Shown here: in pieces, positions 3,714-64,000 of the stretch | Position numbering within the stretch: position 1 is the first letter of the stretch | Layout of the letters: every line of letters starts with the position of its first letter | IMG/VR virus record: IMGVR_UViG_3300016464_000385 | DNA from: an uncultured virus (IMG/VR IMGVR_UViG_3300016464_000385) | Taxonomy: Duplodnaviria > Heunggongvirae > Uroviricota > Caudoviricetes | Length of the DNA: 64,000 bases | Direction: 5' to 3' (one strand) | Notes under the pieces: model-generated | What the model saw: the letters and a program-made list of their open reading frames with translations, nothing else | Told to the model about the DNA's origin: nothing | The model's database searches: none | Position numbers and translations under genes: made by a program

Positions 3714-3742
3714 ATTATATTATTTTTTCCTATAAAAGTCAA
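3714..3742 (-). promoter_or_regulatory. Sigma70-type promoter TTGACT-17-TATAAT
   Basis: AGTCAA 3737-3742 and ATTATA 3714-3719 on + strand, 17 bp spacer. Confidence 0.65.
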
Positions 3743-4140
3743 GTTTTTTTATATACATGTTTTCTAGTTACTTTAACAGAAATCCATTGATTATAATATT
3801 CTTCTGGTTTTAATAAAACATCAAACTCAAATTGATATTTTGCTTCCCAATAAGAACATTCGGATTTCGATGAACATAAACGAAGAATAGTTCTTTTAAA
3901 TTGATCGTTGCCTCTTGAAGAAACTTCTTCTTTTAAAGAATCATTAGAACCATAATAATCTTTCCAATCAGATTCTACTAAAAATCCTTTACGTTTACCT
4001 TTGACGGTTTTGTATTTTTTAAACCAAAATTGTTTTTTGCCGATATATTTTTTATTATTAAAGGTATCTTCTATTATATAAACGAATCCCCAATTATCAG
4101 CAGGTTCAACAAAAGGAATATCTTGGTATATCCAAGACAT
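3739..4140 (-). CDS. GIY-YIG family endonuclease
   Basis: GFVYII...KKYIGKK, YYGS, conserved E, YYN. Confidence 0.8.
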   Translation of the reverse strand: MSWIYQDIPFVEPADNWGFVYIIEDTFNNKKYIGKKQFWFKKYKTVKGKRKGFLVESDWKDYYGSNDSLKEEVSSRGNDQFKRTILRLCSSKSECSYWEAKYQFEFDVLLKPEEYYNQWISVKVTRKHVYKKT

Positions 4141-6742: not shown

Positions 6743-8551
6743 TCAAGAATGACAAGCTATACAATCATCACCATTAATCAAATCATTAAGGTTGATTTCC
6801 TCGATTATTTGCCTTTCGATTTGTTTCGATACTTTATCAGCTTTCTTTAAACTATCTGATCTACAATAATATAAAGTAGGAAGTTTGTGTTTCCAGGCCA
6901 TAAAATGAATAGCATGTAGATATTTAATATGAACATCCGGTCTAAAGAATAGATTTACTGATTGAGTTTGATCAATAAACTTTTGTCTATCAGCAGCAAG
7001 TTCTACGACCCAACGTTGATCAATTTCCATAGCAGTCTTGAATACTTCTTTTTCATCGTCAGAGAAAATATCCATATGTTGAATAGAACCATCGTTAGAA
7101 ATAATATCTAACCAGACTTCATCATAACTTAATTTAGGATTTTTTTCAAGTTTTTCTTTAATTAATCTATCCAATACATGATTCTTATTTAAATAAGAAC
7201 CCGACATAGTATCTTGACGATAAGCATTAGCTCTAATAGGTTCAATAGAAGGACTGATATTACCCATAATAATAGAAGTAGAAGCCGTCGGAGCAATAGC
7301 CATTACATGACTAAATCTCTGATAGCCCATGGTTTTGCCGCCTGAAATAAAGTCCATGCAGCTTCCTCTTTCTTTTCCAAGTTCGCTATTAGCAAAATCT
7401 AAATGATTTCTAATATTCTTGAATATTTGCATATTTCTAGATTTAGCTAATGCGGATTCAAAAGGAATATTATTTTGCTGTAGATATGTATGGAATCCTA
7501 ATACACCAACTCCAATAGCCCTTTCCATAGAAGCTGAATAAGCTGCCCTTGAAATAGCCTCCGGAGCTTTAGAAATAAATTTACTTAAAACATTATCAAG
7601 CATTTCTGCTATATCTCTAAAGAACTGATAATTATCTTTATACTCGTCATAATATCTTAGGTTAACAGAAGATAAACAACAAACAGCAGTTCTTTTTTCA
7701 TCCGTGGGAAGAAGGATTTCAGTACAGATATTACTTTGCGTAATCTTTAGTCCTAAATTCTTTTGGAAATCAGGAAGTTGTTCGTTAGCAGTATCAATAT
7801 AAAGGATATAAGGTTCTCCAGTTTGCATTCTCATATCAAGAATCTTTTGCCATAATTCTTTAGCGGATACTGTCTGCTTAACGTTTTCTGGGTTATGATG
7901 ATCAAATAAATCCCAAGAATCATCAAAATTAGGATCAATCATACATTGTTCAATAATATTCATAAACTTATCAGTTAGAATAATACCGTGATGTAGATTT
8001 AAACACTTTACGTTTTGATCTCCCGTAGGTTTCCTCATTTCTAGGAACATCAATACATCTGGATGATCTACTCTCAAATAAGCAGCATAAGAACCTCTAC
8101 GAGTCTTACCTTGGCGATAAGCTAGGCAAGAAGCATCGTAGATTTTTAGATGGGGCATTACTCCAACTGACTTTTCGTCAGCAGAACGAATATCAACGCC
8201 GATACCAACTCCACCACCTAACATTGATAGGGTATTTACTTCAGAAAGAGTATCAACTAACCCAGAAGAAGAATCTTGCATATAGGAAAGGAAACACGAT
8301 ATAGGAAGTCCCTTTTTAGATTTACCATAGGAAAGAATAGGAGTAGCGAAAGACAACCAATGTTTAGAAGAATAGTCATATAATCGCTGTGCATGATCTT
8401 TATCCGAAGCAAAAGCATTAGAAACAAAAGCAAATCTTTCCTGAGGCGATTGCTCCTCTTCTCTCATATATGATTCTTTTAACCGTTTGATTCCAAGCGA
8501 ATCAAATAAATTGTCTCTCTCTGGTTCTATGTTAATTCCTAGATATTCCAT
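6743..8551 (-). CDS. nrdA: Ribonucleotide reductase class Ia alpha subunit (short, no ATP-cone)
   Basis: PISCFL, GGGVG, QSNICTEI, CCLSS, AIAPTAS, TLYY, C-terminal CIAC. Confidence 0.95.
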   Translation of the reverse strand: MEYLGINIEPERDNLFDSLGIKRLKESYMREEEQSPQERFAFVSNAFASDKDHAQRLYDYSSKHWLSFATPILSYGKSKKGLPISCFLSYMQDSSSGLVDTLSEVNTLSMLGGGVGIGVDIRSADEKSVGVMPHLKIYDASCLAYRQGKTRRGSYAAYLRVDHPDVLMFLEMRKPTGDQNVKCLNLHHGIILTDKFMNIIEQCMIDPNFDDSWDLFDHHNPENVKQTVSAKELWQKILDMRMQTGEPYILYIDTANEQLPDFQKNLGLKITQSNICTEILLPTDEKRTAVCCLSSVNLRYYDEYKDNYQFFRDIAEMLDNVLSKFISKAPEAISRAAYSASMERAIGVGVLGFHTYLQQNNIPFESALAKSRNMQIFKNIRNHLDFANSELGKERGSCMDFISGGKTMGYQRFSHVMAIAPTASTSIIMGNISPSIEPIRANAYRQDTMSGSYLNKNHVLDRLIKEKLEKNPKLSYDEVWLDIISNDGSIQHMDIFSDDEKEVFKTAMEIDQRWVVELAADRQKFIDQTQSVNLFFRPDVHIKYLHAIHFMAWKHKLPTLYYCRSDSLKKADKVSKQIERQIIEEINLNDLINGDDCIACHS

Positions 8552-8693
8552 TTTGTTCTTCCTTCTCGATTTGTTTTTTATATTCTTCGTCTATAACTCT
8601 CTGAGCCCAAAATTCCTCATTTTCAATAAATAAGTCATCGTCCTCGAAAATTTCAGAGATCGTTTTCTTTTCTGTTTTCTGAATAGTGGACAT
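8532..8693 (-). CDS. 53 aa acidic hypothetical protein (not in ORF track)
   Basis: Manual translation MSTIQKTEKKTISEIFEDDDLFIENEEFWAQRVIDEEYKKQIEKEEQNGISRN fills the mazG-nrdA gap. Confidence 0.45.
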   Translation of the reverse strand: MSTIQKTEKKTISEIFEDDDLFIENEEFWAQRVIDEEYKKQIEKEEQNGISRN

Positions 8694-9069
8694 CAAATTT
8701 TCCTGCCGGATACCTATTTATTAATTTATTTACGTTTTCTTTAATTACTTCGTTTGGATCTAAGTTCAAAGCTCTGCAAGCATTAATCCAGTACCAAGCA
8801 ATATCTCCAAGCTCCCTGAATAAATGATATTTAGTATCTTCATCTAAAGGTTTTCCTTGGAAAACAATCTTCTTAACAATTTCCTGAAACTCTCCGCCCT
8901 CAGAACCTAATCCAATAGCAGCAGTCATTAATAGGGAAATATTACCTACTCCTTCGCTTTTAAGCGCATTTAACCTAGAAATCATAAACTCTAGATCATT
9001 TGAAGAATTTGAAGTAACAGATTCAACAAATTCCATATAACGATTCAAATCAACAGCATTCTTATTCAT
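8653..9069 (-). CDS. mazG: MazG-like NTP pyrophosphohydrolase
   Basis: GL.SEGGEF.EIVKK, ELGDI.WY, N..KL..RYP. Confidence 0.88.
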   Translation of the reverse strand: MNKNAVDLNRYMEFVESVTSNSSNDLEFMISRLNALKSEGVGNISLLMTAAIGLGSEGGEFQEIVKKIVFQGKPLDEDTKYHLFRELGDIAWYWINACRALNLDPNEVIKENVNKLINRYPAGKFDVHYSENRKENDL

Positions 9070-9071
9070 TA

Positions 9072-9782
9072 TTAACCCTCTTTATTTACTAAAATTTCAC
9101 ACAAACTATCAACATTTTCCGGCAATATTTCATTATGAACAAAAGTTCTAATCATTGGAAAAATTGGTTCAATCGCTTTAGCACAAGCAATAGCGATTTC
9201 ACGATGTTCTTTTTGAGTTTCAATCCCGCTTCGTATAATTATATAGTGTATCCAAGAACGAATACTTCCTTTCATATACATCCTAGAAACAGTTAATCCT
9301 TCCGGAAGAACTGCTCTGGCTTGTTCCTTCGCTATACCATTTTCAATCGCCCAATTATATGCTTCTTTTGCTTTTTCTAGAAGTTCATATTGGATACAAT
9401 ACCAATTTTCGCCCAACCAAACATCATCTGAATCAATACTATTTTGTCTATTTTTAGGATCTTGTAATCTAGCTTCTCTAGTAACAAAACCTAAATCTTT
9501 AGTTGGGTCCGCATACCTTTGACTAAATTCTTGAAATACGAAACTACGATGTCTTAAAATTTGCCTAGCAATATCCCTGGTAGTTTCTATTTCTAGAGTA
9601 GCATCTACCATTTCTAGAGGGGACCAATGCTTATGCTTAATAAGATAAGAAACGAGTTTTTCTGCAGTCTCGTTATTATTTTGATTTGATGGATTAGAAA
9701 CTCTAGCGACATACGCTATTTGTTCTAATAGATTCTTTTCTCCATCAACATCCTGACTAAAACTTTTCAGGGTAACTTTCAT
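9072..9782 (-). CDS. thyX: Flavin-dependent thymidylate synthase
   Basis: HWSPLE, QILRHRSF.FQEFSQRY, AKEQAR.VLP, TQ.EHR. Confidence 0.95.
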   Translation of the reverse strand: MKVTLKSFSQDVDGEKNLLEQIAYVARVSNPSNQNNNETAEKLVSYLIKHKHWSPLEMVDATLEIETTRDIARQILRHRSFVFQEFSQRYADPTKDLGFVTREARLQDPKNRQNSIDSDDVWLGENWYCIQYELLEKAKEAYNWAIENGIAKEQARAVLPEGLTVSRMYMKGSIRSWIHYIIIRSGIETQKEHREIAIACAKAIEPIFPMIRTFVHNEILPENVDSLCEILVNKEG

Positions 9783-9791
9783 TCACTTCTC

Positions 9792-10802
9792 CTAACATTT
9801 CTTCCAATTATTAAATTCAACGGATGCCCTTAATCCATTATATGTATTATTATCTATAATACGTCTAATTTCCGGCTTAGACATACCGTTTAATATAGCC
9901 TCATTAATATCTTTCCCTTTAAAAGAATTAGGAAAAAGGCAAACAGTAAATCCATTATCTATAGATTTTTTGATTTGTTTTACTATCTGAGGGTTTCTTG
10001 GTTCATTATCATAAACTAACACAAGATTAGTTTTCCCTAAAAATTCCGCAGAAGCTAAATTTGAATCTGCTGTAGCTACAGCATTTTCCAAAAATAAAGA
10101 ATCTATCGGTCCCTCGGTAACAAATATCTTTTCATTTTTATTTAGCTTATCCAGGCCAAATATTTTAGTAGCATCCTCGATCAATTTTACTGTAATATAT
10201 CTCAATTTACTATCTTTTAACGTTCTTCCTTGAAATGCTACTAGATTTCCATCGACATCATTAAACGGAATAATTAATCTTGGATCATTATCTACTAATT
10301 CTTTATCATAATCAGGTTTTATTTCTAAAACGAATTTCTTAAAATCTTCCGCATAAAAAAGGTCTTTAAATCGACCTTTGGGTATTTTTCTTTCAAGAAC
10401 ATATTTCTTGGCTATATTATCATCTTCAAGCTCTTTAATAGAAGGAAGATTTATTTCCTTCTTTTTAAACTTTGGAGTTTTAAATTCCAATTTTGGTTTT
10501 TTGTAATTATGGTTTTTATCTTCTCCTTCTCTGAATCTTTCCATCGCATATTCTTTTGCTAAAGAAGAGTCCAGGCGATCCAAAAAATTGTAGAAAGTAG
10601 TACCGCATCCCTCATCATTAAAACATTTATAAAAAAGATCATTTTTCTTCCTGTATACGAATCCCCTTTTACGGGATTTTTTCTTTTGAGAATCGCCGCA
10701 AAAAGGGCAGCGAAAGTTGTAAAGTTCTTGGTTCTTTTGAGTAAAACCCTCAAGCCGACAAGAAACGATTTTTAGATATTTGAGATCAATATAAAAGCTC
10801 AT
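9792..10802 (-). CDS. 61: DNA primase (T4 gp61-like)
   Basis: RCPFCGDS Zn finger, FQGR, TOPRIM EGPIDS, DNEPRN, KDINE. Confidence 0.93.
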   Translation of the reverse strand: MSFYIDLKYLKIVSCRLEGFTQKNQELYNFRCPFCGDSQKKKSRKRGFVYRKKNDLFYKCFNDEGCGTTFYNFLDRLDSSLAKEYAMERFREGEDKNHNYKKPKLEFKTPKFKKKEINLPSIKELEDDNIAKKYVLERKIPKGRFKDLFYAEDFKKFVLEIKPDYDKELVDNDPRLIIPFNDVDGNLVAFQGRTLKDSKLRYITVKLIEDATKIFGLDKLNKNEKIFVTEGPIDSLFLENAVATADSNLASAEFLGKTNLVLVYDNEPRNPQIVKQIKKSIDNGFTVCLFPNSFKGKDINEAILNGMSKPEIRRIIDNNTYNGLRASVEFNNWKKC

Positions 10803-10834
10803 ACTAAATTTTTACTTGGATAAAACGAAAGCGA

Positions 10835-10915
10835 ATTATACCCCTAAAATAAAAAAAGTCAAAATAAAAAGAATTTACTTGACTTTTTTGGAAAATAAAA
10901 TACAATAACTATGTA
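10835..10915. promoter_or_regulatory. Back-to-back sigma70-type promoters (minus toward primase; plus antisense to late genes)
   Basis: Minus: TTGACT(10862-10857)-16-TATAAT(10840-10835). Plus: TTGACT(10879-10884)-16-TACAAT(10901-10906) followed by AACTATGTA. Confidence 0.65.
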
Positions 10916-10926
10916 GTGGGTTGATG

Positions 10927-11460
10927 TTAATTCAACCGTTTAAATGCTCTGGTACATAGTTCTTCTATATTTACGCAATAAGAAACTCGTTTATCGAATG
11001 AAATTGTTATGGTTCTATCTATACCAAAAACTTTATTGATTTGTATTGGTAATGAATTTTCTTGATTACAAGGTTTGTTTTGATCACATATATTCAATTT
11101 AACTATTCCAAAAAAACCGTCTATAGTCTCGATATTAAATATCTTAAACTTTTTAGATACAGCTTGACTTCCATTTTGTTCTATTACTGTGAATAGACCT
11201 TCTACTTTTGATTCATCAATTGATATTATTAAATCTCCAATAGAAGAAGTCCAAGTACCTTCTATATAGTTCAATAATTTTTCGTTAGTATCTTCTTTGA
11301 GGATTTGTATTTGCTGTTCCCTATCCATTTTAGGGCTTATTTCTAATGGAGAGAATAGCTCTTGCCATATAAGTCCACCCAAACAGCCTATTATGATGCC
11401 TAACGAAAAAATCTTAGTTCTGCATCCAATATTTACAAACGGTTTATCTTTGGAAGTCAT
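10927..11460 (-). CDS. Membrane-anchored hypothetical protein
   Basis: Hydrophobic segment IFSLGIIIGCLGGLIW, then soluble domain with Cys pairs. Confidence 0.65.
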   Translation of the reverse strand: MTSKDKPFVNIGCRTKIFSLGIIIGCLGGLIWQELFSPLEISPKMDREQQIQILKEDTNEKLLNYIEGTWTSSIGDLIISIDESKVEGLFTVIEQNGSQAVSKKFKIFNIETIDGFFGIVKLNICDQNKPCNQENSLPIQINKVFGIDRTITISFDKRVSYCVNIEELCTRAFKRLN

Positions 11461-11879
11461 TTCTTATCGCCCTTGTTATATTCTTCTACGAATTTTTTTG
11501 CAATATCGTTTAAATTTTCTTGTGGATGTGTAGGTTCTTCCCTTGTGGGATTTAAAACAAGATTATTCCAAAGTAATCCTAAAAAGGCTGTCAGTACAAA
11601 TGCAACAAGACCCATAGTTAATTTCTTAACCAATCTTATTTCCGGGAATTCTAATTTAACTTCTTCTAAATCCTGTTCTATTTCTTTAACTCTAGATTCA
11701 AAAACAGCAGTATCTTTTTTATTCCTTAAATCGTCTTTTAAAATTTCTATTTTTCTATGAATTTCTTGGATAGCACTATCCATTTTATCGAAACGTTTTT
11801 CGTTTTCCGAAATTTTATTCTCTAAAATAGAAATCCTTAACCAAATATCGTTTTGATCTGGTCTTATTCTTTCTGACAT
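11457..11879 (-). CDS. Coiled-coil protein with one TM helix (holin-like candidate)
   Basis: Heptad-rich N-terminus, LTMGLVAFVLTAFLGLLW TM; next to endolysin. Confidence 0.6.
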   Translation of the reverse strand: MSERIRPDQNDIWLRISILENKISENEKRFDKMDSAIQEIHRKIEILKDDLRNKKDTAVFESRVKEIEQDLEEVKLEFPEIRLVKKLTMGLVAFVLTAFLGLLWNNLVLNPTREEPTHPQENLNDIAKKFVEEYNKGDKK

Positions 11880-11990
11880 TAATATTTCCTTTTATTTTGA
11901 TTCAACTATTTGTTGATTGATTACAGTTGACTTCAAAAAGGGAAAATAGCGTATTCTATTCCTTTTATATTCCCTATTTTATAATATAAT

Positions 11991-11998
11991 TATTTATA
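11991..11998 (-). promoter_or_regulatory. T4-type late promoter TATAAATA
   Basis: TATTTATA on + overlapping endolysin stop. Confidence 0.55.
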
Positions 11999-12755
11999 CT
12001 TTCAAAATATTCAGGGCTTTATTATATCTTACTTTTCTATCAGCCAAACCATTATCGCCGCCATTAATTTTCTTAGTCATCATAACGATATTATTTTTAT
12101 CACACCATTGATTTATATCGTTTACTTGCCAATACCAACAAGCTGATAATACACATACTCTTTTATTAACTTCAACTAGATCTGGATCTTTTAATAAACT
12201 TAAATCATTAAAAATGAATTTAGAGAAATTTGTATAATTAGTTTTTCCAGTTAATTGTATTAATCCTCTTCCTCTGAAATTCCAACCATCATTAGTTTCT
12301 GGAGATCCATTACCCATTCTATCAGAATATATTTTATTGGCGATTAATTGAGGTTTTCTATGAAAACTTTTTGCGGAAGCTAAAGTTGGGAATCTTCTGG
12401 GGAAAGTTTTATGTAATCCTTGAGCAGAATAGTTTAAATTTTCTACTGTAGTGGTATAATCCATACTTTCATGACCAGTTTGAGCTAAGAATCCAGCAAC
12501 TCTTTCTGGTGTGTTTATATTATAAAGAGGAAGAACGTCATACAAAACGTCATACCATTCTTTTGAATCTTTATTGATTATAATCTTTTTAAATTTATCG
12601 TAAGTGAACTCGAAAGTAAACGGATTTACTGGTTCTTCAACTACAATTAATTCTTCCTTAACTGGAGAATCGTTTTTTATTTTTTCTATTGGTATTGAAG
12701 AACTTAATGGTTCTGGTCTATTAAATACATCAAATAATTTTTTAAAAAAACTCAT
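11994..12755 (-). CDS. Glycoside hydrolase family 19 endolysin
   Basis: AGFLAQTGHES, ENLNYS, IANKIY..RMGN, FRGRGLIQLTG..NY, TK.INGG.NGL.DR. Confidence 0.92.
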   Translation of the reverse strand: MSFFKKLFDVFNRPEPLSSSIPIEKIKNDSPVKEELIVVEEPVNPFTFEFTYDKFKKIIINKDSKEWYDVLYDVLPLYNINTPERVAGFLAQTGHESMDYTTTVENLNYSAQGLHKTFPRRFPTLASAKSFHRKPQLIANKIYSDRMGNGSPETNDGWNFRGRGLIQLTGKTNYTNFSKFIFNDLSLLKDPDLVEVNKRVCVLSACWYWQVNDINQWCDKNNIVMMTKKINGGDNGLADRKVRYNKALNILKV

Positions 12756-38349: not shown

Positions 38350-39058
38350 TATTCCTCCAAGGATATTTACCATTATAATGATTTTCTGATTCTTTATTCC
38401 AAAATTCCCAAAATTCGCCAGTCAAATTATTATCTCCGCCTAATCTATAATTTAAAGTATATTCTCCGGAGCAATCGAACTTTTTAAAATTATCGGATAA
38501 TACTTGAAAATACCTTCTATCATGACCCCATCCACCAACGAAGTACGGAGCAACCATCATAGCTACTTCCCTTTTAATGCAATATGTGCTTGTATCACAA
38601 AGTTTATAATTAAACACGGTAGAATATTTGCCAAGACTTTCGCAATCGTCGTTACAAATATATTCTCCTTCTTTTGATACTATTTTTCTAAGAGAATACG
38701 ACCAATCTAGATCATCCGATTCTATTTTATTAATACAAGATTCAACATGATTTTTATCAAACCAACAATCTTGATCTAGATAAAGAATGTAATCGGCGTT
38801 AACTAAAAACGAAAAAGCAGAATAAATTCTATGACCATTTTGACCGTTTGCTCCGGTATTTTCCGGTAAATAATATTCAACTAAATTTTTACCGAAGTTC
38901 TTGAATATAGTTTTACTAACTACCTTTTTAGAATGCTCAATTCCATCACTAACGAGATATACTTTTGTATTTTCATAGGTCTGAGAGATAGCAGAATCTA
39001 CAGCTTGCCATACTGTATCTGCTCCAGTGGTAGGGATAATAATAGCCGCTTGTTTCAT
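38342..39058 (-). CDS. GT2 glycosyltransferase
   Basis: IIIPT, QTY, DG, YLDQDCW (DxD), DTS, DR. Confidence 0.85.
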   Translation of the reverse strand: MKQAAIIIPTTGADTVWQAVDSAISQTYENTKVYLVSDGIEHSKKVVSKTIFKNFGKNLVEYYLPENTGANGQNGHRIYSAFSFLVNADYILYLDQDCWFDKNHVESCINKIESDDLDWSYSLRKIVSKEGEYICNDDCESLGKYSTVFNYKLCDTSTYCIKREVAMMVAPYFVGGWGHDRRYFQVLSDNFKKFDCSGEYTLNYRLGGDNNLTGEFWEFWNKESENHYNGKYPWRNNG

Positions 39059-39483
39059 AATATTATGACTCCAAAATTTTCATTACAACCTTCAATATAA
39101 TCTAATGTATATATAACGGTTTTTATACCATAATCCGTAATACAACGCAAACAACCTTCACATGGAGCAGCCAATCCAGAAACAAAATTAGTTTTTTCTG
39201 TGGAATTATATTTTACCCTAGCAATATACAGAATAGAACTTTCGAATTTATCAAAATTCAGTTTCTTATCGGCTGTATGTATTGCAGAAGTTTCTGCATG
39301 CCAATATATTGATTCTTCGTTTTTTGCGTATCTTCTTTGGTAAGGATGGGTTTTCATTTGATTGACGCCATAAGAAATTGATTTATTCCTATGAACAAGA
39401 GAGGACGCAATCCAGACTTTAGGATGAGTTCCGGAATGCGCCAAAGTTTTTAGATTGTTTAAAATTTTCAAGTGAGTTTTCAT
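39055..39483 (-). CDS. Zn-dependent CMP/dCMP-deaminase-fold protein
   Basis: HAE...PCEGC; start set at MKTHLK (39483) from promoter position. Confidence 0.75.
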   Translation of the reverse strand: MKTHLKILNNLKTLAHSGTHPKVWIASSLVHRNKSISYGVNQMKTHPYQRRYAKNEESIYWHAETSAIHTADKKLNFDKFESSILYIARVKYNSTEKTNFVSGLAAPCEGCLRCITDYGIKTVIYTLDYIEGCNENFGVIIL

Positions 39484-39489
39484 CAACAT

Positions 39490-39519
39490 ATTATAAATGA
39501 AACTCACAGAAAAGTAAAC
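39490..39519 (-). promoter_or_regulatory. Sigma70/T4-early-like promoter GTTTACT-17-TATAAT heading the glycan island
   Basis: AGTAAAC 39513-39519 and ATTATA 39490-39495 on +; 17 bp spacer. Confidence 0.7.
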
Positions 39520-44887: not shown

Positions 44888-45184
44888 TTATAGAATTATA
44901 CCTTTTGGTGGAGTTACGATACCAGAACCGAAGATAGAATTGTATTGAATCACAAATTCTTCAGCGGGTTCGCAAACAAATAAAATATGTTTCTCGTTAA
45001 TTTTAATCTCTTTGTCGTTAGAAGTCAATGGAAATGGGGCAAACCCAAAGTTAGGTTGATTTGATGTTCTGCTATGGACCAAAGTGGCCTGCACAGGGTT
45101 TTTCATCGTTACGATACCCTCAGACAAAGAATATTCGCAAATAATATCTTCTCCAGTAATTAATTTCAAACTTTTAATATTCAT
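44888..45184 (-). CDS. Conserved T4-like small (Sm-like) hypothetical protein
   Basis: KLITGEDII, Y...FGSGIV.P. Confidence 0.7.
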   Translation of the reverse strand: MNIKSLKLITGEDIICEYSLSEGIVTMKNPVQATLVHSRTSNQPNFGFAPFPLTSNDKEIKINEKHILFVCEPAEEFVIQYNSIFGSGIVTPPKGIIL

Positions 45185-45723
45185 ATTTTTCTCTCTACTT
45201 TATATACATTAATTCCACACTCTTTTAAAAATTTTATACCATCAGAACTTCTATATTCTTCCGCGTAATAAAAATCTTTTATTTTAGCTCCATATATTAA
45301 TTTAGCACAACTCATACAACAAGAATGTGTGCAAAATAAAGAAGCTCCATCTGAAGATTGGTCTGAAGAAGCAACCTTCATTAGCATAGCTTCTTCTGCA
45401 TGAGTAACGCAAGATTTAGTCTTTAAGTGATATCTACCAATGATAGTAGGCTCAGATTCATTGGAAAATTTGACATCACTATATTCAACATAAGGCCAAT
45501 TCTTTTCTATATATTCTGGATCTAGAAAAGGACCGCCATCCTTATCAAACCAAACTTTATCCTCGCAATTATTGTCCCATCCTCTAGGAGTACCGTTCCA
45601 AGAAAAAGAAATTATATTATCATTCTTAACTAGAACAGCACCGACTTTTAACTTTTTGGCGTAAGATAATTGAGCAGTCCTATGGGCAACATCGATATAA
45701 TAATCAATTAACCTCGGCTTCAT
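45181..45723 (-). CDS. cd: dCMP deaminase
   Basis: A.LS.A..LKVGAV.V, NGTP.G.DN.CE, HAE, C..CAK. Confidence 0.88.
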   Translation of the reverse strand: MKPRLIDYYIDVAHRTAQLSYAKKLKVGAVLVKNDNIISFSWNGTPRGWDNNCEDKVWFDKDGGPFLDPEYIEKNWPYVEYSDVKFSNESEPTIIGRYHLKTKSCVTHAEEAMLMKVASSDQSSDGASLFCTHSCCMSCAKLIYGAKIKDFYYAEEYRSSDGIKFLKECGINVYKVERKI

Positions 45724-54120: not shown

Positions 54121-55920
54121 TTAAGCTTTCATAATTTCTTCAATTTCACTGAAATCAATAGTTTCTTTCTCCATCAATAAATCAGCAATATTTAAAACTT
54201 TATCCCAATTTTTCTTCAAAAGTTTTTCAGCTGCAGAATAATTTTTATTGATCAAAGATTCAATTTCTTTCTGAACTAATCCAGCAGAATCTTCCATACC
54301 AGATTTAAATTGAACTCCACCGCCCATAAAACCGCTACCATCTTCGACGTATTTGATTGGAGGAAGTTTCTTGCTCATTCCCCATTCAGTTATCATCCTT
54401 GAAGCAAGTTCAGTAGCTCGTTCAATATCATTACTAGCTCCAGTGGTAATAGAATCAAATCCAGCAAATAATTCTTCTGCTATTCTACCTCCGTATAAAG
54501 AAGCAATTTGACCTTCTAGTTTTTTTCTAGAAACAGAAACGGTATCTTTCTCAGGTAAAAACATAGTAATACCTAAAGCTCTTCCGCGAGGAATAATAGA
54601 AACTTTGTAGATAGTATCATGTTCAGGCATAAAATAACCAACAACAGCATGCCCAGCTTCATGAATAGCTGTCATCTTCTTCTCTTCTTCAGACATTAAA
54701 AACGATTTTCTCTCTACGCCCATTAATAACTTATCTTTAGCCTTTTCAAAATGCTTCATTTCAACAAATTCAAGACCTTCCCTTGAAGCCAGAATAGAAG
54801 CTTCATTTACTATATTAGATAATTCCGCTCCAGAAAACCCTGAAGTTCCTCTAGCAATAAAAGAAAAGTCTACATCTTCGCTTAGTGGAATATCTTTAGA
54901 ATGTACTTCTAGGATCTGTTTTCTACCAACAACATCAGGCAGAGATACTGTAACTTCTCTATCAAACCTTCCTGGTCTTAATAATGCTTGATCTAGAATT
55001 TCTGGTCTATTGGTAGCAGCAATTATAATAACTCCGGTTTTTGTATCAAAACCATCCATCTCTACTAATAAGGCATTAAGGGTTTGATCCCGTTCATCGT
55101 TACCTAAAACAGCATTACTTCTAGATTTTCCAATAGCATCAATTTCATCAATAAAAATGATACAAGGAGAATTCTTTTTAGCTTCCTCGAACATATTTCT
55201 AACTCGAGAAGCTCCAACACCAACAAACATTTCAACGAAGTCTGAGCCAGAAATGGAATAGAAAGGAACTCCTGCTTCATGAGCGATAGCTTTAGCTAAT
55301 AAAGTTTTACCGCAACCTGGTTCTCCTGTTAATAAAATACCTCTAGGGATTTTTCCGCCAAGCCTATTAAATTTTTCGGGATCTTTTAAGAAATCAACGA
55401 TCTCTTTAACTTCTTCCTTTGCTTCATCACATCCAGCAACGTCATCGAATTTAGTTGTATTATTTGGATCAGCAACTAACAATTTAGCATTAGATTTTCC
55501 TGCGCCGAACCTATTTGGATTTTGTCTATTCATAAAATAAATCCAAACGCCTATTAGTAATAATACAGGAATAGAATTTATTAAAATTTCAACAAATATA
55601 TTTCTTTGTTCCGGTAAGGGAACAGAGACATCAACTTTATGTTTCAATAAATCATTAATTAGTTGAGGGTCATTTGATGGAGCATTTACCATATACTCTT
55701 CGCCAGTTTTAGCCACTACTCGAATTTGAGTAATTCCTCCATTAAGGTTTTTTAAAACTACTTTAAGTATTCCATCATTATTAACTGTCGATACAAATCT
55801 GGTATAAGAAGGATTATACCCTTGCATACCAGTTTCATTATTCGTTAAATTATTGTATATACTCACGACCAAAAAAACAGTCACGAATATAATAAGAGCT
55901 CTTTTTACAATTATATTCAT
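54121..55920 (-). CDS. ftsH: ATP-dependent zinc metalloprotease FtsH
   Basis: Two TM helices, [50 protein letters not shown]. Confidence 0.95.
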
Positions 55921-58904: not shown

Positions 58905-59438
58905 TTAAATTCTCTGTATATTATATAGTTGGTATTTAAACTCTGCTATTGCTGTCATAGGTTTGTCTGCACTTGCCGTTGTGCTGAATTTAACTGAAGA
59001 TAAAGATACAGGGAACATATCTATAAATTTTATTTTGAATTTTGGATTATTAAGGGCGGATAATATAGTCAACTCTCCTTGAGAATACTGAGGTTTTGTA
59101 TTTAATCCTGGCAAACTCATTTCAGATAATTTATTTAAATTTCTATATTCATCAAAATCATGAGGAAAAGAATATCCCCTCATCCAGTCATGAATAATTT
59201 CCCATGCCCACAATTCTTCATCTACTATAAATTCCATGCTAAACGAGCTATACTCCAATTTATCTCCAGGTTTATACAAATCAACAAAAGGAGTATTTTG
59301 TCTTACCGGACTCGAAGATATTCCAGGAATAGATATGTCTTGGCAAAAGTATGTTGCAGAAGAAACTCTTGGAAAAATAACTTGAAATTTTGTAGGCTGC
59401 AAATAATTAGTATTTTGCGGATTTCTTGTTGATGCCAT
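58905..59438 (-). CDS. 3: Tail completion/sheath stabiliser (gp3-like)
   Basis: N.N.L.P.KF, FCQ...IPG, PGDKL.Y, F.VDE, F.D.FP.SLS; position before uvsY. Confidence 0.8.
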   Translation of the reverse strand: MASTRNPQNTNYLQPTKFQVIFPRVSSATYFCQDISIPGISSSPVRQNTPFVDLYKPGDKLEYSSFSMEFIVDEELWAWEIIHDWMRGYSFPHDFDEYRNLNKLSEMSLPGLNTKPQYSQGELTILSALNNPKFKIKFIDMFPVSLSSVKFSTTASADKPMTAIAEFKYQLYNIQRI

Positions 59439-59469: not shown

Positions 59470-59498
59470 TTGACAAAAAATAATTTTTAAGTTACAAT
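59470..59498 (+). promoter_or_regulatory. Sigma70 promoter TTGACA-17-TACAAT for the modification operon
   Basis: TTGACA 59470-59475, TACAAT 59493-59498, GAGG SD before ATG 59525; a divergent CTAAATA late-like motif at 59466-59460 faces gene 3. Confidence 0.75.
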
Positions 59499-59524
59499 AT
59501 TTTTGTAATTTTATAGAGGTAAAT

Positions 59525-60886
59525 ATGAGAACTATAGTAGCGAAAGAACAAATAAATTGCGAACATTTACTGGGACAATTTTTAGACGAATCCCATTATG
59601 ATGAACTTATTGACGAAGATTGTGATTTTTTTGCTCCACCTTCGTGCGGTATAGAAGAAAGAACTGAATGCGGCGATCTAAATTGCTCATCTTGTCCGAA
59701 AGGTATTGACGAAGATAAAGTTATTTTTATTTTAAGGAAAAATTTCTTTACCGAAGAAGAACAATTAAATGCTCTAGAAGGTTTAAAAGGAGCTGCCTGT
59801 CAATCTCAAAATAGGGGAATGGCTGCTGGTCCAAGAGGAGAAAAACTTCAAGGGAGAGATTGGGTTACTGAATATCAATTGGAAGTTTTGGATCATTTTC
59901 TTAACCCCGTTCAAAATTTATTCGGCGAAGACGTTCTTGAAGAAATAAAATCAAAATTTTCAAAAGGCGAACAAGACCCTTCCGTAAGAGGGTTTGTTTG
60001 GTTGACTTCTAAGGTAAAAGAAGATGGATTTATTTTTGATGATTGGGTTGATTATATCAAAACTTGCTCTCCGGAAGAACAGAAAAAGAGCGCTCTTTTG
60101 GTTAAATCGTATATTTCCGATACAAACTACGCTGTTCCGGTTTTTTCTGGCGTAGCTGGTTGGTTTGATAGATATCCTAGAATTCCATATGGAAGAGCGA
60201 CTTCTTACACAGAAAAGAATCCAGAAAAATTTGCGAAGGCTTATCCATTTTTTCAAAAATTATCAAAAGCGTTTTCCGACCTTCTTCCGCGAAGATGGGG
60301 ATTTCAAAAATCTTGCGTGGATAAATTGGATCCTGCATTTCATGTTCCTGAAACCGTTTTCACTACTATTACAGTAAATAAATCATTCAGAACAGCAGCA
60401 CATAGAGATGCTGGCGACCTACACGAAGGGTTTAGTAATTTATCAGTTCTGACTAACGGAAAAAATTATTCCGGAGGATACTTGGTTCTTCCTGAGTTCA
60501 GGGTTGCTGTGAACGTCAGACCAGGGGATTTATTGTTGATCAATAATCATTTTGGGATTCATGGCAACACCCCAATCATATTAGAAGAAGAAGGCGCAGA
60601 AAGATATTCGGTCGTTTGTTATTTTAGAGAAAAAATGCTTGAATTAGGATCGAAAAAATATGAAGATTGCAGATACAATTTCATAGAATTTAGAAGATTG
60701 AATAAAGAACATAAAGAATGGAGGCCATTATGGAACGGTATTTCTGCATCTATGTGGGAAAGTGAAGAATGGTTGGATTATTTGTTATCAGCTGATGATG
60801 GGGAAGAAATGGCCAAAAAATACCAAAAATCTTTATATGACAATAGATTCTCCAAAAATACTTTCATAGAAGATTTATTTAATTGA
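59525..60886 (+). CDS. TET/JBP-family 2-oxoglutarate/Fe(II) dioxygenase
   Basis: FTTITVN..FRTAAHRDAGD (HxD), GG.L..PE, GDLLL, HGNT, R.S.VCYFRE. Confidence 0.85.
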   Translation: MRTIVAKEQINCEHLLGQFLDESHYDELIDEDCDFFAPPSCGIEERTECGDLNCSSCPKGIDEDKVIFILRKNFFTEEEQLNALEGLKGAACQSQNRGMAAGPRGEKLQGRDWVTEYQLEVLDHFLNPVQNLFGEDVLEEIKSKFSKGEQDPSVRGFVWLTSKVKEDGFIFDDWVDYIKTCSPEEQKKSALLVKSYISDTNYAVPVFSGVAGWFDRYPRIPYGRATSYTEKNPEKFAKAYPFFQKLSKAFSDLLPRRWGFQKSCVDKLDPAFHVPETVFTTITVNKSFRTAAHRDAGDLHEGFSNLSVLTNGKNYSGGYLVLPEFRVAVNVRPGDLLLINNHFGIHGNTPIILEEEGAERYSVVCYFREKMLELGSKKYEDCRYNFIEFRRLNKEHKEWRPLWNGISASMWESEEWLDYLLSADDGEEMAKKYQKSLYDNRFSKNTFIEDLFN

Positions 60887-60887
60887 T

Positions 60888-61577
60888 ATGTGCGGAGTTA
60901 TTGGAGCGTTTTTGATACACCCTACTGAAGAAGATTTGCTTTCGGTAAGTAGGGTTTTTATACAAACTAAAATTAGGGGATTGCATGCAACCGGAGTTTC
61001 ATTTATAAAAAATGAAAAAATTCATACAATAAAAGAACCCATCCCTTCGGATATATTTTTTGAAAAATATAAAATATATGATTTTCTTAATGAAGATGGA
61101 AATTTGTATTTGATCGGTCATTGTAGATATAGTACAAGTAATTTAATATATAACCAACCAATTTCCGACGATAATATTTCAATAGTACATAATGGGGTAA
61201 TAACTCAAGAAAATTATGAAAATTGGGAATCTATGTACGGATATACTTGTATTACTGCAAATGATTCAGAATTGGTATTGCGTTCTATATTAGACGAAAA
61301 ACCTCCATTGTTACGTTGGTTTGATTCTTCTATGGCTGTTTGTGAATTGCGCAAGAATAAAACAATTGGGTTTTATAGAAACGGAAAAAGACCACTTTAC
61401 TATACTAAATTGATAAATGGGTTTATAATAACCTCCACGGAAAATATAGCAAAACGGTCGAATTTAAACGGAAAAATTTCAAAAACTGAATTATCCGTAC
61501 ATTATTTTTATGATGGAAAAACATTCAGTTTAAATTCTTTTAATGAAAATAATATCTTTCAGGAATTACAAATATGA
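60888..61577 (+). CDS. Class II (Ntn) glutamine amidotransferase
   Basis: N-terminal MCGVIG, RG.HATG, GHCRYST, NQP, HNGVI, NDSE, RN..RPL. Confidence 0.88.
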   Translation: MCGVIGAFLIHPTEEDLLSVSRVFIQTKIRGLHATGVSFIKNEKIHTIKEPIPSDIFFEKYKIYDFLNEDGNLYLIGHCRYSTSNLIYNQPISDDNISIVHNGVITQENYENWESMYGYTCITANDSELVLRSILDEKPPLLRWFDSSMAVCELRKNKTIGFYRNGKRPLYYTKLINGFIITSTENIAKRSNLNGKISKTELSVHYFYDGKTFSLNSFNENNIFQELQI

Positions 61578-62542
61578 AATATCCAATCAAAGAATGGTCA
61601 TATGGAGTGGAATTGGAATATGGGAATTGTTATAGATTTTGCGAATTACCTGAAGGGGCCAAATGGAACGATAAAGATAATACTTGCGTTAGCTCTACTG
61701 GTATTGCAAACGATCCAGAAGGAATTTTATACAAATATGGCGGAGAAATAAACACAAACCCGACGTTTGATATAGAAGAACAAGTTCGTCATATTCAAAA
61801 GATAAACGAATGTCTTTATCCAGCCCCTATTGTTAATTATAGAAGTAATTTACATATACATATTAGAGTTCCCGGATTACATGAATCTTTAGATGATTGT
61901 AAAAAATTATTAAGATACATTGATACATACCAACAACAAGCGTTTGATATTGTGGAATATATTCCAGTACCAAATAAATCTGTTTTGTTTCCAGAAGTTT
62001 ATGAATGGGAATTAAAAAGGATGAAAAGAAGATTAAAATCACATCAATATAAACTTCCAAAAAATAGAGTTCAAGCTATGCTCAATGCTGATTCAACAAC
62101 AGAATTTTACGAAGAACATGCTCCACTGACTGAAAAAGGTAGAATGTGGTATTTTAGCCCAAGAGCTGGTATAAATTTGAGGCAAATGTGGGAAGAAAGT
62201 AATACGATTGAATTCAGACATTTCCCAGGAACTTTAGATGCAACAGAGATGCGGTCTTGTATTACTTGGTGTCAACAATTTCTTGATTCTATTTTAAATT
62301 CGCAAGAAGAATTAACCCCCCGCGAAATTTATATGAATGGTTCGTATAAATTCCCTAAATTCCAACCTTATGAATTTGAAACGGAACAAGTATATCAATG
62401 GACCAATTTTGACACAAATACAAAAAAACAAATAAAATTCAGGTTGGATGAGTTACGCAGTTTTATAGATATAGATGACGTAAATAATGTTACATCAAAA
62501 CAAGTTTATGATATAATTTGTAAATTGAAAGAGGAGGGTTAG
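61574..62542 (+). CDS. Amidoligase (COOH-NH2 ligase, glutamine synthetase/GCS-like fold)
   Basis: YGVELE, D, GGEINT.P, HIHI, TIEFRH. Confidence 0.8.
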   Translation: MKYPIKEWSYGVELEYGNCYRFCELPEGAKWNDKDNTCVSSTGIANDPEGILYKYGGEINTNPTFDIEEQVRHIQKINECLYPAPIVNYRSNLHIHIRVPGLHESLDDCKKLLRYIDTYQQQAFDIVEYIPVPNKSVLFPEVYEWELKRMKRRLKSHQYKLPKNRVQAMLNADSTTEFYEEHAPLTEKGRMWYFSPRAGINLRQMWEESNTIEFRHFPGTLDATEMRSCITWCQQFLDSILNSQEELTPREIYMNGSYKFPKFQPYEFETEQVYQWTNFDTNTKKQIKFRLDELRSFIDIDDVNNVTSKQVYDIICKLKEEG

Positions 62543-62545
62543 ATA

Positions 62546-62977
62546 GTGAAAGTTTTATTTGTTTGTCATGGAAATATTAACAGAAGTGCTGCTGGAGAAA
62601 TTATTCTTAAGTCAATTAAACCCGAATGGGAAATTAAAAGCGCAGCACTAAAAGAAACAAAGGGGGGAGAGATCACAGCAAAAAAGATGAGAGATGCTTT
62701 ATGTGAACTTGGATATAAAACCGAGGGAATCAGATCAACCCCAATAAATCAGCAACTAGTCGATTGGGCCGATATTATATTTTACATGGATGATTCAAAT
62801 AAAAACAAACTGGAAGAGAAATTTGGACAACAAATTTTCAAAAAATCAATAAGAATTAGTAGCCTAATTGGTGTACCAAAAATACCAGATCCAAATTTCG
62901 CTAAAGATAATGAATTACATAAACAAGTTATTTCTATGTTGGAAAAAGCTTTGATTAATTACATAAATGTTGTATAA
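62546..62977 (+). CDS. Low-molecular-weight phosphatase (LMW-PTP/ArsC fold)
   Basis: VLFVCHGNINRS (CX5R), SA, WAD.I..MD, IPDP. Confidence 0.88.
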   Translation: MKVLFVCHGNINRSAAGEIILKSIKPEWEIKSAALKETKGGEITAKKMRDALCELGYKTEGIRSTPINQQLVDWADIIFYMDDSNKNKLEEKFGQQIFKKSIRISSLIGVPKIPDPNFAKDNELHKQVISMLEKALINYINVV

Positions 62978-63983
62978 TAAAAATAATAGAAGAGAATTAT
63001 TTATAAGGTGGTATGCTTGGTCTTTGAAGTATAAAGATTGCGATCCAGCTATTTGGTTAGCAAATTATCTTAACGAACGATTTGAACATAACATAGAACA
63101 AAAATATTGGTTTTCTTGGTTGTATGGAAATACATATAATTTACCAACAGCTTGGGTTATGTTCAATGAATTTCCAGATTACGAGTTAGTTACTCAAGAT
63201 AGAATATCTTGGTGGAATGAATCTAATTATAAAAGATTGAGATATCAAACTGATATGAAATACGAGAAAGGAAAATTGCCTGAAAAATTCAATTCGTATA
63301 AAAATTCTTTAGGTAATTCGCAACAAAAAGAATTTTTTTGTAATTTATATTTAGATAATGAAAAGCAAAATTTTGATAATATTTGGAAACATATAATAAA
63401 AAAATTTCACAGATTTGGTAGGTATTCAACTTGGTTTTATATGCAACAATTAAAGTCAACTTGCGGGTTGTTAATTGAACCTACGTCAATGATGTTAAAC
63501 GATTATTCTGGTTCCAAAAGTCATAGAAATGGTTTGTTGCTGGCTCTTGGAATGGATGAAAAATATAACGAGAAATTAACCATTTCTGAATATCTGTATT
63601 TAGAATCAGTTTGTGGAGAAATTTTAAAGGAAACAAGAGAAAGATTCCCTGAGTTGTCGGATGATATCAATCATTTTACTTTAGAGACTGTTTTGTGCTC
63701 TTTCAAAAAAATTTTCAGAAAGAAACACGGGAGATATCTTGGTTATTATTTAGATAGACAATCTGAAGAAATAATACAAATAGAAAAAGACGGATGGTTT
63801 GGTATTGATTGGGATGTTTTATGGCAAGCAAGAAACGAATGTCTTGATTTTAGAATTGCAGGGAAAAATTTAATAGAAGATTATAAATTTTCAGAATTCA
63901 TTGACAATGGATTTTTATCTAGAATGAACTGGATGTTTGACGACGAAAAAGAACTTAAGAATATTTTGGAGTATTTTGTATGA
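62967..63983 (+). CDS. Alpha-glutamyl/putrescinyl-thymine pyrophosphorylase clade 2 (amino acid:DNA transferase)
   Basis: DCDP, W..WLYG.TY, FGR.S.WFY.Q.L, SHRNGL, LET.LCSFKK, RY.GYY.DRQ (HhH-derived AADT pattern). Confidence 0.75.
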   Translation: MLYNKNNRRELFIRWYAWSLKYKDCDPAIWLANYLNERFEHNIEQKYWFSWLYGNTYNLPTAWVMFNEFPDYELVTQDRISWWNESNYKRLRYQTDMKYEKGKLPEKFNSYKNSLGNSQQKEFFCNLYLDNEKQNFDNIWKHIIKKFHRFGRYSTWFYMQQLKSTCGLLIEPTSMMLNDYSGSKSHRNGLLLALGMDEKYNEKLTISEYLYLESVCGEILKETRERFPELSDDINHFTLETVLCSFKKIFRKKHGRYLGYYLDRQSEEIIQIEKDGWFGIDWDVLWQARNECLDFRIAGKNLIEDYKFSEFIDNGFLSRMNWMFDDEKELKNILEYFV

Positions 63984-64000
63984 GAAAAATCATGGCTATT
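63980..64000 (+). CDS. Start of next operon gene (truncated at window edge)
   Basis: ATGA overlap with upstream stop; MRKIMAI... Confidence 0.6.

Follow-up and report, generated by a model that had tools for sequence, protein, structure and literature searches.

A widespread phage operon, very probably for post-replicative thymidine hypermodification, and a tentative two-module scheme for its chemistry

We analysed a 64,000-nucleotide stretch of DNA from an uncultured virus (IMG/VR record IMGVR_UViG_3300016464_000385), which is called the window throughout, and focused on the plus-strand operon that occupies its last 4.5 kb. This operon comprises five tightly packed open reading frames (ORFs) and the beginning of a sixth at position 63980. 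The five encode a TET/JBP dioxygenase, a glutamine amidotransferase (GATase), an amidoligase, a low-molecular-weight Cys phosphatase (LMWPc) and an amino acid:DNA transferase (AADT) (Table 1). The five protein families, their catalytic residues and their co-occurrence across contigs indicate a real and widespread cluster, which very probably directs the hypermodification of thymidine in DNA that has already been replicated. For its chemistry we favour, with a probability of roughly 0.45, a mechanism suggested by sequence comparison and built from two modules, one formed by the GATase and the AADT and the other by the amidoligase and LMWPc. The pathway type is already published, and the window cluster belongs to a published, biochemically uncharacterised cluster type; what is new in this analysis is the module structure, with the GATase in the core and the amidoligase accompanied by either LMWPc or a GNAT protein. 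The final base made by the operon may well be new.

Enzyme families of the operon

We assigned the five products to families using the curated Pfam gathering cut-offs and evaluated residue conservation in alignments of 33 to 72 homologues per enzyme, drawn from related loci. A first-pass annotation, made by a model from the sequence and its ORFs, had proposed the same five families (TET_JBP, GATase, Amidoligase_2, LMWPc and ADDT), and our analysis confirmed all five, with scores above the cut-offs and intact catalytic residues.

The TET/JBP protein scored 82.6 bits against Tet_JBP (PF12851; cut-off 34.9, E 2.3e-23). The iron triad, formed by H293-x-D295 and H346, and the 2-oxoglutarate-binding R360 are invariant across 62 TET homologues. 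An AlphaFold2 model of the protein (pLDDT 90.8) returned NgTET1, CcTet, TET2 and CMD1 as its best Foldseek matches (E 2e-10 to 2e-8) and, as modelled, the enzyme has the fold of DNA-base TET enzymes. With 453 aa it represents a long form of the family that has no ParB partner. We identified no ParB_N domain among the window ORFs, and across the related IMG/VR contigs ParB stands alongside all 21 short TETs and none of the 54 long ones. Correspondingly, the adjacent ParB-like activator that defines the ParB-dependent T-dioxygenase subclass (O'Toole, 2026) is not found beside the window TET.

The predicted reaction of this enzyme is the conversion of thymine to 5-hydroxymethyluracil (5-hmU). In the main text and SI appendix of O'Toole (2026; PMC13229309), phage TETs of clades C1 and C2 are reported as T-dioxygenases, and this activity is demonstrated for homologous ParB-linked TETs. 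The opposite assignment, in which the TET acts on 5-methylcytosine (5mC) and the operon hypermodifies cytosine instead of thymine, appears highly improbable. The TET/JBP family does include phage 5mC dioxygenases (PMC8256090) and for some phage enzymes T and 5mC are both substrates (PMC13229309), but a search of the 77 other window ORFs gave no match to a DNA C5-methyltransferase at E <= 1e-4, the AADT and kinase of the cluster belong to families of the 5-hydroxymethyldeoxyuridine (5-hmdU) route, and the demonstrated activity of the homologous ParB-linked enzymes is on thymine. The window also carries no dUMP hydroxymethylase; ThyX is present, which indicates that normal dTTP is made. A long TET is also found in the cultured, T4-like Caulobacter phage Cr30 (L001; 6998–12161, 48% identity), where it is annotated as 'SNF2 DNA repair protein' and is followed within 3 kb on the 3' side by a dGTP_diPhyd_N protein, an ADDT protein (PF18724, E 1.3e-52) and a weakly TAGT-like gene.

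The ORF starting at 62967, which the first-pass annotation had placed in the AADT family, scored 73.6 bits against ADDT (PF18724; cut-off 26.2, E 2.6e-20) and is homologous to ViI gp247 (30% identity over 263 aa, E 1e-25), which is listed as a serine:DNA transferase in the main text of Lee (2021; NAR, PMC8989533). E240 and C244 are invariant in 72 AADT homologues. These residues lie in the motif LETVLC, which aligns with VETILC of PaMx11 gp46 (E243/C247), and Cys247 of gp46 is the proposed covalent nucleophile (PMC11472151). The window AADT and PaMx11 gp46 showed only weak pairwise similarity (E 0.048). A search of the PDB with the single AADT sequence returned chance-level matches only, and the AADT profile returned none.

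The sixth gene is inferred, by analogy with its relatives, to encode a P-loop kinase. A P-loop kinase gene follows AADT in all 33 relatives collected with AADT as the seed, and it was assigned to PF18751 in two of them (L008, 4.2e-10; L004, 3.9e-13). The syntenic kinase starts with MRKIICVIGEPGVGKT in L008 and with MRKVICVIGEPGVGKT in L003, and the MRKIMAI start in the window resembles that of L008. Another relative, L096, carries PF18748 (HMUDK_HMUD1). The L008 kinase matched ViI gp243 at the P-loop only, and its similarity to PaMx11 gp49 was not significant. The suggestion in the first-pass annotation that the truncated gene may be such a kinase agrees with these relatives. In L008, the closest relative, whose AADT is 72% identical to that of the window, the gene directly 3' of the kinase is amoC/pmoC (PF04896, E 1.8e-119; 9624–10388). 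In the sister cluster L079, a gene of the flavin-dependent tryptophan-halogenase family (PF04820, E 7.9e-93; 9419–10891) lies between AADT and kinase and may represent a further tailoring enzyme.

The GATase scored 37.6 bits against GATase_6 (PF13522; cut-off 27, E 2.6e-9). It contains all the features expected of an N-terminal nucleophile (Ntn) GATase, namely the N-terminal Cys nucleophile (Cys2), the glutamine-binding Arg and Asp (R80 and D126) and the Asn-Gly oxyanion hole (N102-G103). These residues are invariant in 69 homologues and form a PurF-type glutamine site. The single sequence gave no hits in the PDB, whereas the GATase profile matched the glutaminase domains of PurF, GlmS and AsnB, with PurF as the best match (2.5e-8).

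The amidoligase belongs to Amidoligase_2 (31.1 bits, cut-off 22), with a GS/GCL fold and conserved metal and ATP ligands; E13, E15, E58, H96, E213 and R215 are invariant in the homologue alignment. Its profile gave no hits in the PDB. A homologue with 29% identity is found in Vibrio phage 2.275.O (L040; 7890–13098) within a 7-deazaguanine DNA modification cluster, where its neighbours are QueF-like, YhhQ-like, QueC, Ntn-hydrolase and FolE genes. As judged from gene content, this shows the ligase family recurring in other DNA-base pathways, and it leaves the partner of the ligase unsettled.

The phosphatase scored 64.3 bits against LMWPc (PF01451; cut-off 23.2, E 1.8e-17). Its CHGNINRS P-loop and D115-P116 (PDP) align with the solved low-molecular-weight protein tyrosine phosphatases 3jvi and 3ido. 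Across 33 homologues D115-P116 is invariant, and C7 and R13 of the CX5R loop are at least 90% conserved. The closest relatives are protein tyrosine phosphatases, Wzb included, and the match to ArsC was marginal (E 0.0044).

Conservation of the gene set across related contigs

We collected relatives of the operon from IMG/VR in two scans. The scan seeded with AADT identified 33 loci with 50–73% identity, of which the closest have AADTs 72–73% identical to that of the window, and the scan seeded with the amidoligase added 74 contigs, giving a combined set of 107 distinct contigs. Among the 33 AADT-seeded loci, TET and GATase were each present in 30, and all three misses fell at contig ends. The amidoligase is paired with LMWPc, as in the window, in 56 of the 107 contigs, most of which have the full gene set: counts for the individual genes are 47 (TET), 54 (GATase), 52 (AADT) and 48 (kinase). 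Each of the four AADT misses falls at a contig end; the nine TET misses include L053 and L094–L096, in which no TET occurs within the fetched flank. Co-occurrence in other phage genomes, the absence of which the first-pass annotation had listed as refuting its interpretation, is extensive.

The same comparison revealed how the genes are combined. The amidoligase is always accompanied by either LMWPc (56 contigs) or a GNAT protein (26 contigs), and LMWPc and GNAT were not found together in any of the 107 contigs. GNAT occupies the slot of LMWPc in these sister clusters, and the amidoligase–LMWPc pair sits directly 5' of the kinase gene. A further 19 contigs carry GNAT only, and GATase occurs without the amidoligase in 19 of the 107. 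L016 represents a minimal cluster of ParB, TET, GATase, AADT and kinase, in which GATase lies directly 5' of AADT. In the rearranged, TET-less loci L094–L096, GATase stays beside AADT and the amidoligase beside LMWPc. Because 19 contigs keep GATase without an amidoligase, and in view of L016 and L094–L096, we place GATase in the universal core of the cluster on the basis of these gene arrangements. Many relatives also contain a glycosyltransferase gene (TAGT or Glycos_transf_1) between GATase and amidoligase, which is absent from the window operon.

The amidoligase–LMWPc pair is separable from this core because it is also present in phage Simon (L039, PQ683277), whose record contains no GATase in its whole 60.9 kb. 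Simon is an unannotated GenBank entry from a sewage sample with 62.6% GC. At 7968–12528 it carries the amidoligase (41% identity) and then LMWPc, followed by a kinase/HMUDK_hel gene of the 5-hmdU-kinase type, Nmad5 and a thymidylate-synthase homologue, with an HD protein and PolA further 3'. This gene run contains no TET either; here the pair appears to have a second setting, which is pre-replicative. A 456-aa ORF upstream of the Simon pair was considered as a candidate AADT and rejected, as it was not AADT-like by hhalign.

Proposed pathway and alternatives

Based on these comparisons, we propose the following route. The long-form, ParB-less TET would hydroxylate thymine in polymerised phage DNA to 5-hmdU, as suggested by homology and residue conservation. 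The kinase encoded by the sixth gene, as its relatives indicate, would convert this to 5-phosphomethyl-dU (5-PmdU). Homology and conservation likewise suggest that AADT, via its conserved Cys244, would displace the activated 5-hydroxymethyl phosphate with an amine. This order of TET, kinase and AADT had been outlined in the first-pass annotation and is supported by our analysis. In the first module, comparative anatomy suggests that GATase and AADT would use glutamine-derived ammonia as the nucleophile and yield 5-aminomethyl-dU, which would amount to a split version of the PurF-like reaction in which ammonia displaces phosphate. In support of this module, the GATase has PurF glutaminase domains as its closest relatives of solved structure. 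In the second module, the GS/GCL-fold ligase would acylate the amine in an ATP-dependent manner, with a glutamyl group or another carboxylate, for instance. The phosphatase would act on an intermediate, stripping phosphate from a phospho-substituent or from residual 5-PmdU. An N-acylated aminomethyl-uracil, so far undescribed, would be the end product, and its likely role would be to shield phage DNA from host nucleases. Taken as a whole, a route that starts with a ParB-independent TET, proceeds through PurF-like amination from the Ntn glutaminase to AADT, and reaches an undescribed thymine derivative by extension with a GS-fold ligase and finishing by a Cys phosphatase in T4-like marine phages is put forward as the boldest reading, and we consider it less probable than not.

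The first-pass annotation had instead joined GATase and amidoligase as one unit that builds or amidates the substituent. In its amidation form, AADT would install a free amino acid that leaves one carboxylate unused (e.g., Glu or Gly). GATase and amidoligase, acting as the two subunits of an amidotransferase comparable to AsnB or MurT/GatD, would convert this carboxylate to a carboxamide, and the phosphatase would recycle phosphorylated sites. Several observations speak for this alternative and weigh against the two-module scheme. The two genes are adjacent in the window, with a 4-nt overlap, and GATase in the window and in most relatives adjoins TET and amidoligase, not AADT. A natural GATase–amidoligase fusion of 527 aa (P0003) has the classic amidotransferase architecture, and no GATase–AADT fusion was identified among 1450 longer candidates at E <= 1e-5, which is weak evidence. 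The substrate that GS/GCL-fold relatives activate is a carboxylate, in most cases the glutamate gamma-carboxylate, and ammonia is used by GS itself. For the AADTs that the main text of Lee (2021; PMC8989533) lists as characterised, the transferred group is glycine, serine or putrescine, and that text describes ammonia for none of them. Three further points count against our scheme. The role that it gives to LMWPc is a guess; only seven codons of the kinase gene lie inside the window, with the Walker A position beyond its end; and PF18751 differs from the Pfam family of the characterised ViI kinase (gp243, PF18747).

We nevertheless regard the amidation model as a serious but less probable alternative, since GATase occurs without any amidoligase in the 19 contigs mentioned above, stays beside AADT in the rearranged loci L094–L096, and is missing from Simon, in which the amidoligase–LMWPc pair persists. 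The GATase-only contigs and Simon likewise weaken the claim that GATase and amidoligase form an obligatory pair. In addition, two GATase–GNAT fusions (P0004 and P0005) exist, so that fusion to GATase may merely reflect gene adjacency.

A different possibility is that action on DNA is limited to TET, AADT and the kinase, and that the GATase, amidoligase and LMWPc genes are auxiliary, directed at the host and simply sharing the transcript, with functions in cell-envelope or metabolite modification or, for LMWPc, as a Wzb-like tyrosine phosphatase. GATase–amidoligase pairs do occur in phages without known DNA modification, for which a cell-wall or metabolite role is proposed in PMC10580990 (citing Iyer 2009), and the best relatives of LMWPc are, as noted, protein tyrosine phosphatases. 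This explanation is improbable in light of the strict placement of the genes between TET and AADT–kinase in 56 contigs, the recurrence of the amidoligase–LMWPc pair beside a 5-hmdU kinase in the unrelated Simon and the interchange of GNAT and LMWPc at the same slot.

In phage DNA, hypermodified thymines protect against restriction enzymes and comparable defences of the host; they have also been a source of new DNA enzyme chemistry. If the two-module scheme is correct, an amidotransferase, a carboxylate-amine ligase and a low-molecular-weight phosphatase would join the enzyme classes acting on bases within DNA; confirmation of either the GATase–AADT amination or the ligase–phosphatase tailoring would already enlarge this set. 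The cluster type is abundant in marine viromes, as the 56 contigs with the amidoligase–phosphatase pair of the window illustrate. The module analysis yields hypotheses testable by mass spectrometry, and phages Cr30 (long TET and AADT) and Simon (amidoligase–LMWPc) offer cultured or sequenced handles on the system.

Comparison with known systems

The first-pass annotation had stated that no characterised pathway with this enzyme set was known and that the base might therefore be new. This novelty claim was overstated, given that such virome clusters are already in print with the same inference. In its main text, Lee (2021; PMC8989533) reports clusters from viromes that combine TET_JBP with a 5-hmdU kinase, AADT, GATase and amidoligase, and concludes that thymine in DNA becomes 5-hmU, the substrate passed on to the neighbouring enzymes. 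In the main text and SI appendix of O'Toole (2026; PNAS, PMC13229309), GATases, P-loop kinases and AADTs are said to be 'consistently linked' with the ParB-dependent TET subclass, and the SI families are PF18751, PF18724 and PF13522/PF13537. As in the window or, for PF18751, in its relatives, PF12851, PF13522, PF18724 and PF18751 occur together in these clusters (Lee, 2021, Fig 2, sequences 22–25; O'Toole, 2026, Fig 3B, clade C1). In contrast to the window TET, the characterised clade-C1 TETs are ~300 aa long and need an adjacent ParB. Neither 'phosphatase' nor 'amidoligase' is used anywhere in the O'Toole (2026; PMC13229309) main text and SI appendix, and 'phosphatase' occurs once in the main text of Lee (2021; PMC8989533), in a methods remark. 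A paper on diaminopropane-thymine (PMC13458397) mentions none of amidotransferase, amidoligase, GATase, dioxygenase or phosphatase. Our literature search, which covered neither the supplements of Lee (2021) nor datasets S1–S11 of O'Toole (2026), returned no characterised product for the enzyme set; the base may well be new.

A characterised pathway close to the proposed route is the synthesis of 5-AcNmdU in Pseudomonas phage PaMx11. It involves gp46 (Gly:DNA transferase), gp47 (FAD lyase), gp48 (acetyltransferase) and gp49 (kinase). Both systems feature kinase-activated 5-hmdU and a Cys-dependent transferase with an ET-x-LC motif, and in both the tailoring genes lie between transferase and kinase, the FAD lyase and acetyltransferase of PaMx11 taking the slot of the amidoligase and LMWPc in the window. 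By analogy, the window pathway may likewise form an amine that is then N-acylated. 5-Aminomethyl-dU (5-NmdU), the proposed product of the first module, is also an intermediate in PaMx11, where its subsequent N-acylation does take place on DNA (PMC8989533). The two differ in that 5-hmdU in PaMx11 is pre-replicative and derives from a dUMP hydroxymethylase, and the amine derives from glycine and the FAD lyase; in the window TET, GATase, amidoligase and LMWPc are proposed for those roles. The GNAT protein of L019 showed no significant similarity to PaMx11 gp48.

The 5-NeOmdU pathway of Salmonella phage ViI consists of gp247 (Ser:DNA transferase), the kinases gp243 and gp67 and the pyridoxal-phosphate-dependent decarboxylase gp226. 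It shares the AADT family PF18724 with the window, and gp247 is the closest characterised AADT. Its 5-hmdU, however, is pre-replicative, its kinases are of the HMUD2 type (PF18747), it relies on the decarboxylase, and it has no TET, GATase, amidoligase or LMWPc. Trypanosome base J, made by JBP1/2 and a glucosyltransferase, resembles the proposed pathway in the post-replicative oxidation of T by TET/JBP and subsequent decoration of 5-hmU, and the glycosyltransferase genes of many relatives of the window cluster extend this resemblance. The window operon itself contains no glycosyltransferase and would decorate 5-hmU via kinase and AADT.

Genomic setting of the operon

In agreement with the first-pass annotation, the five coupled genes and the start of the sixth form the sole plus-strand block of the window, as all 77 remaining ORFs of at least 60 aa, the threshold used for ORF calling, lie on the minus strand. 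The junctions between successive ORFs measure +1, -4, +3, -11 and -4 nt, the last of these being between AADT and the sixth ORF. A single sigma-70 promoter had also been proposed for the block. A matching candidate is indeed present in the gap preceding the operon, but promoter-like sites in this region (27) are not enriched over shuffled sequences (25.0 +/- 4.7). As their frequency is no higher than in the shuffles, the operon promoter is plausible by position only.

Table 1. Positions of the operon features and the neighbouring tail gene in the window.
Feature	Position	Strand	Basis or remark
Candidate sigma-70-like promoter, TTGACA-17-TACAAT	59470..59498	+	11/12 consensus positions; in 86-nt gap 5' of operon
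TET/JBP-family Fe(II)/2-oxoglutarate DNA 5-methylpyrimidine dioxygenase, 453 aa	59525..60886	+	PF12851
Stand-alone class-II (Ntn) glutamine amidotransferase, 229 aa	60888..61577	+	PF13522
Amidoligase_2, GS/GCL-fold ATP-dependent carboxylate-amine ligase, 322 aa	61574..62542	+	Amidoligase_2 above cut-off
Low-molecular-weight Cys phosphatase (LMW-PTP family), 143 aa	62546..62977	+	PF01451
Amino acid:DNA transferase (AADT/ADDT), 338 aa	62967..63983	+	PF18724
Sixth gene, first 7 codons (MRKIMAI), inferred P-loop DNA-base kinase	63980..64000	+	ATG overlaps AADT stop
Tail tube match, 177-aa ORF neighbouring the operon	58905-59438	-	PHROG 45 'tail tube'

The remainder of the window corresponds to a T4-like replication and recombination module. 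It includes the replication genes gp43, UvsX, gp41, gp45, gp44/62 and RegA; RNase H, RNR, ThyX, MazG and two dCMP-deaminase-like genes; and a gp55-like sigma factor, gp46/47-like nuclease subunits, UvsW and UvsY. Identity between its DNA polymerase and cyanomyophage gp43 reaches only ~43%, and the source is a distant T4-like, marine phage. A megablast of 59470–64000 against phages gave no matches, and an exact-match scan with the last 62 bases of the window gave no hits in either viral_contigs or metagenome_contigs. The two dCMP-deaminase-family genes are separate (39055–39507 and 45181–45723, minus strand), with ThyX at 9072–9782 and MazG at 8653–9069. This nucleotide-pool set favours the supply of dTTP, a point of relevance for a phage predicted to modify thymine.

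A cluster of ~20 kb for sugar-nucleotide synthesis and transfer occupies 17105–39058 on the minus strand. It encodes GDP-mannose 4,6-dehydratase, several epimerases, a DegT aminotransferase, C- and FkbM-type methyltransferases, split E1/transketolase-like proteins, and GT2, GT10 (FucT), GT34 and GT-D-like transferases; possible targets of its decoration are the virion, the host surface and DNA. A full-length gene for an FtsH-like AAA+/M41 protease (54121–55920, minus strand) has the gp55-like sigma factor gene on one side and the SbcCD-like (gp46/47) genes on the other, and the minus strand also carries, at 3739–4140, a gene for a homing endonuclease of the SegE-type GIY-YIG kind (PF19835, E 1.3e-33).

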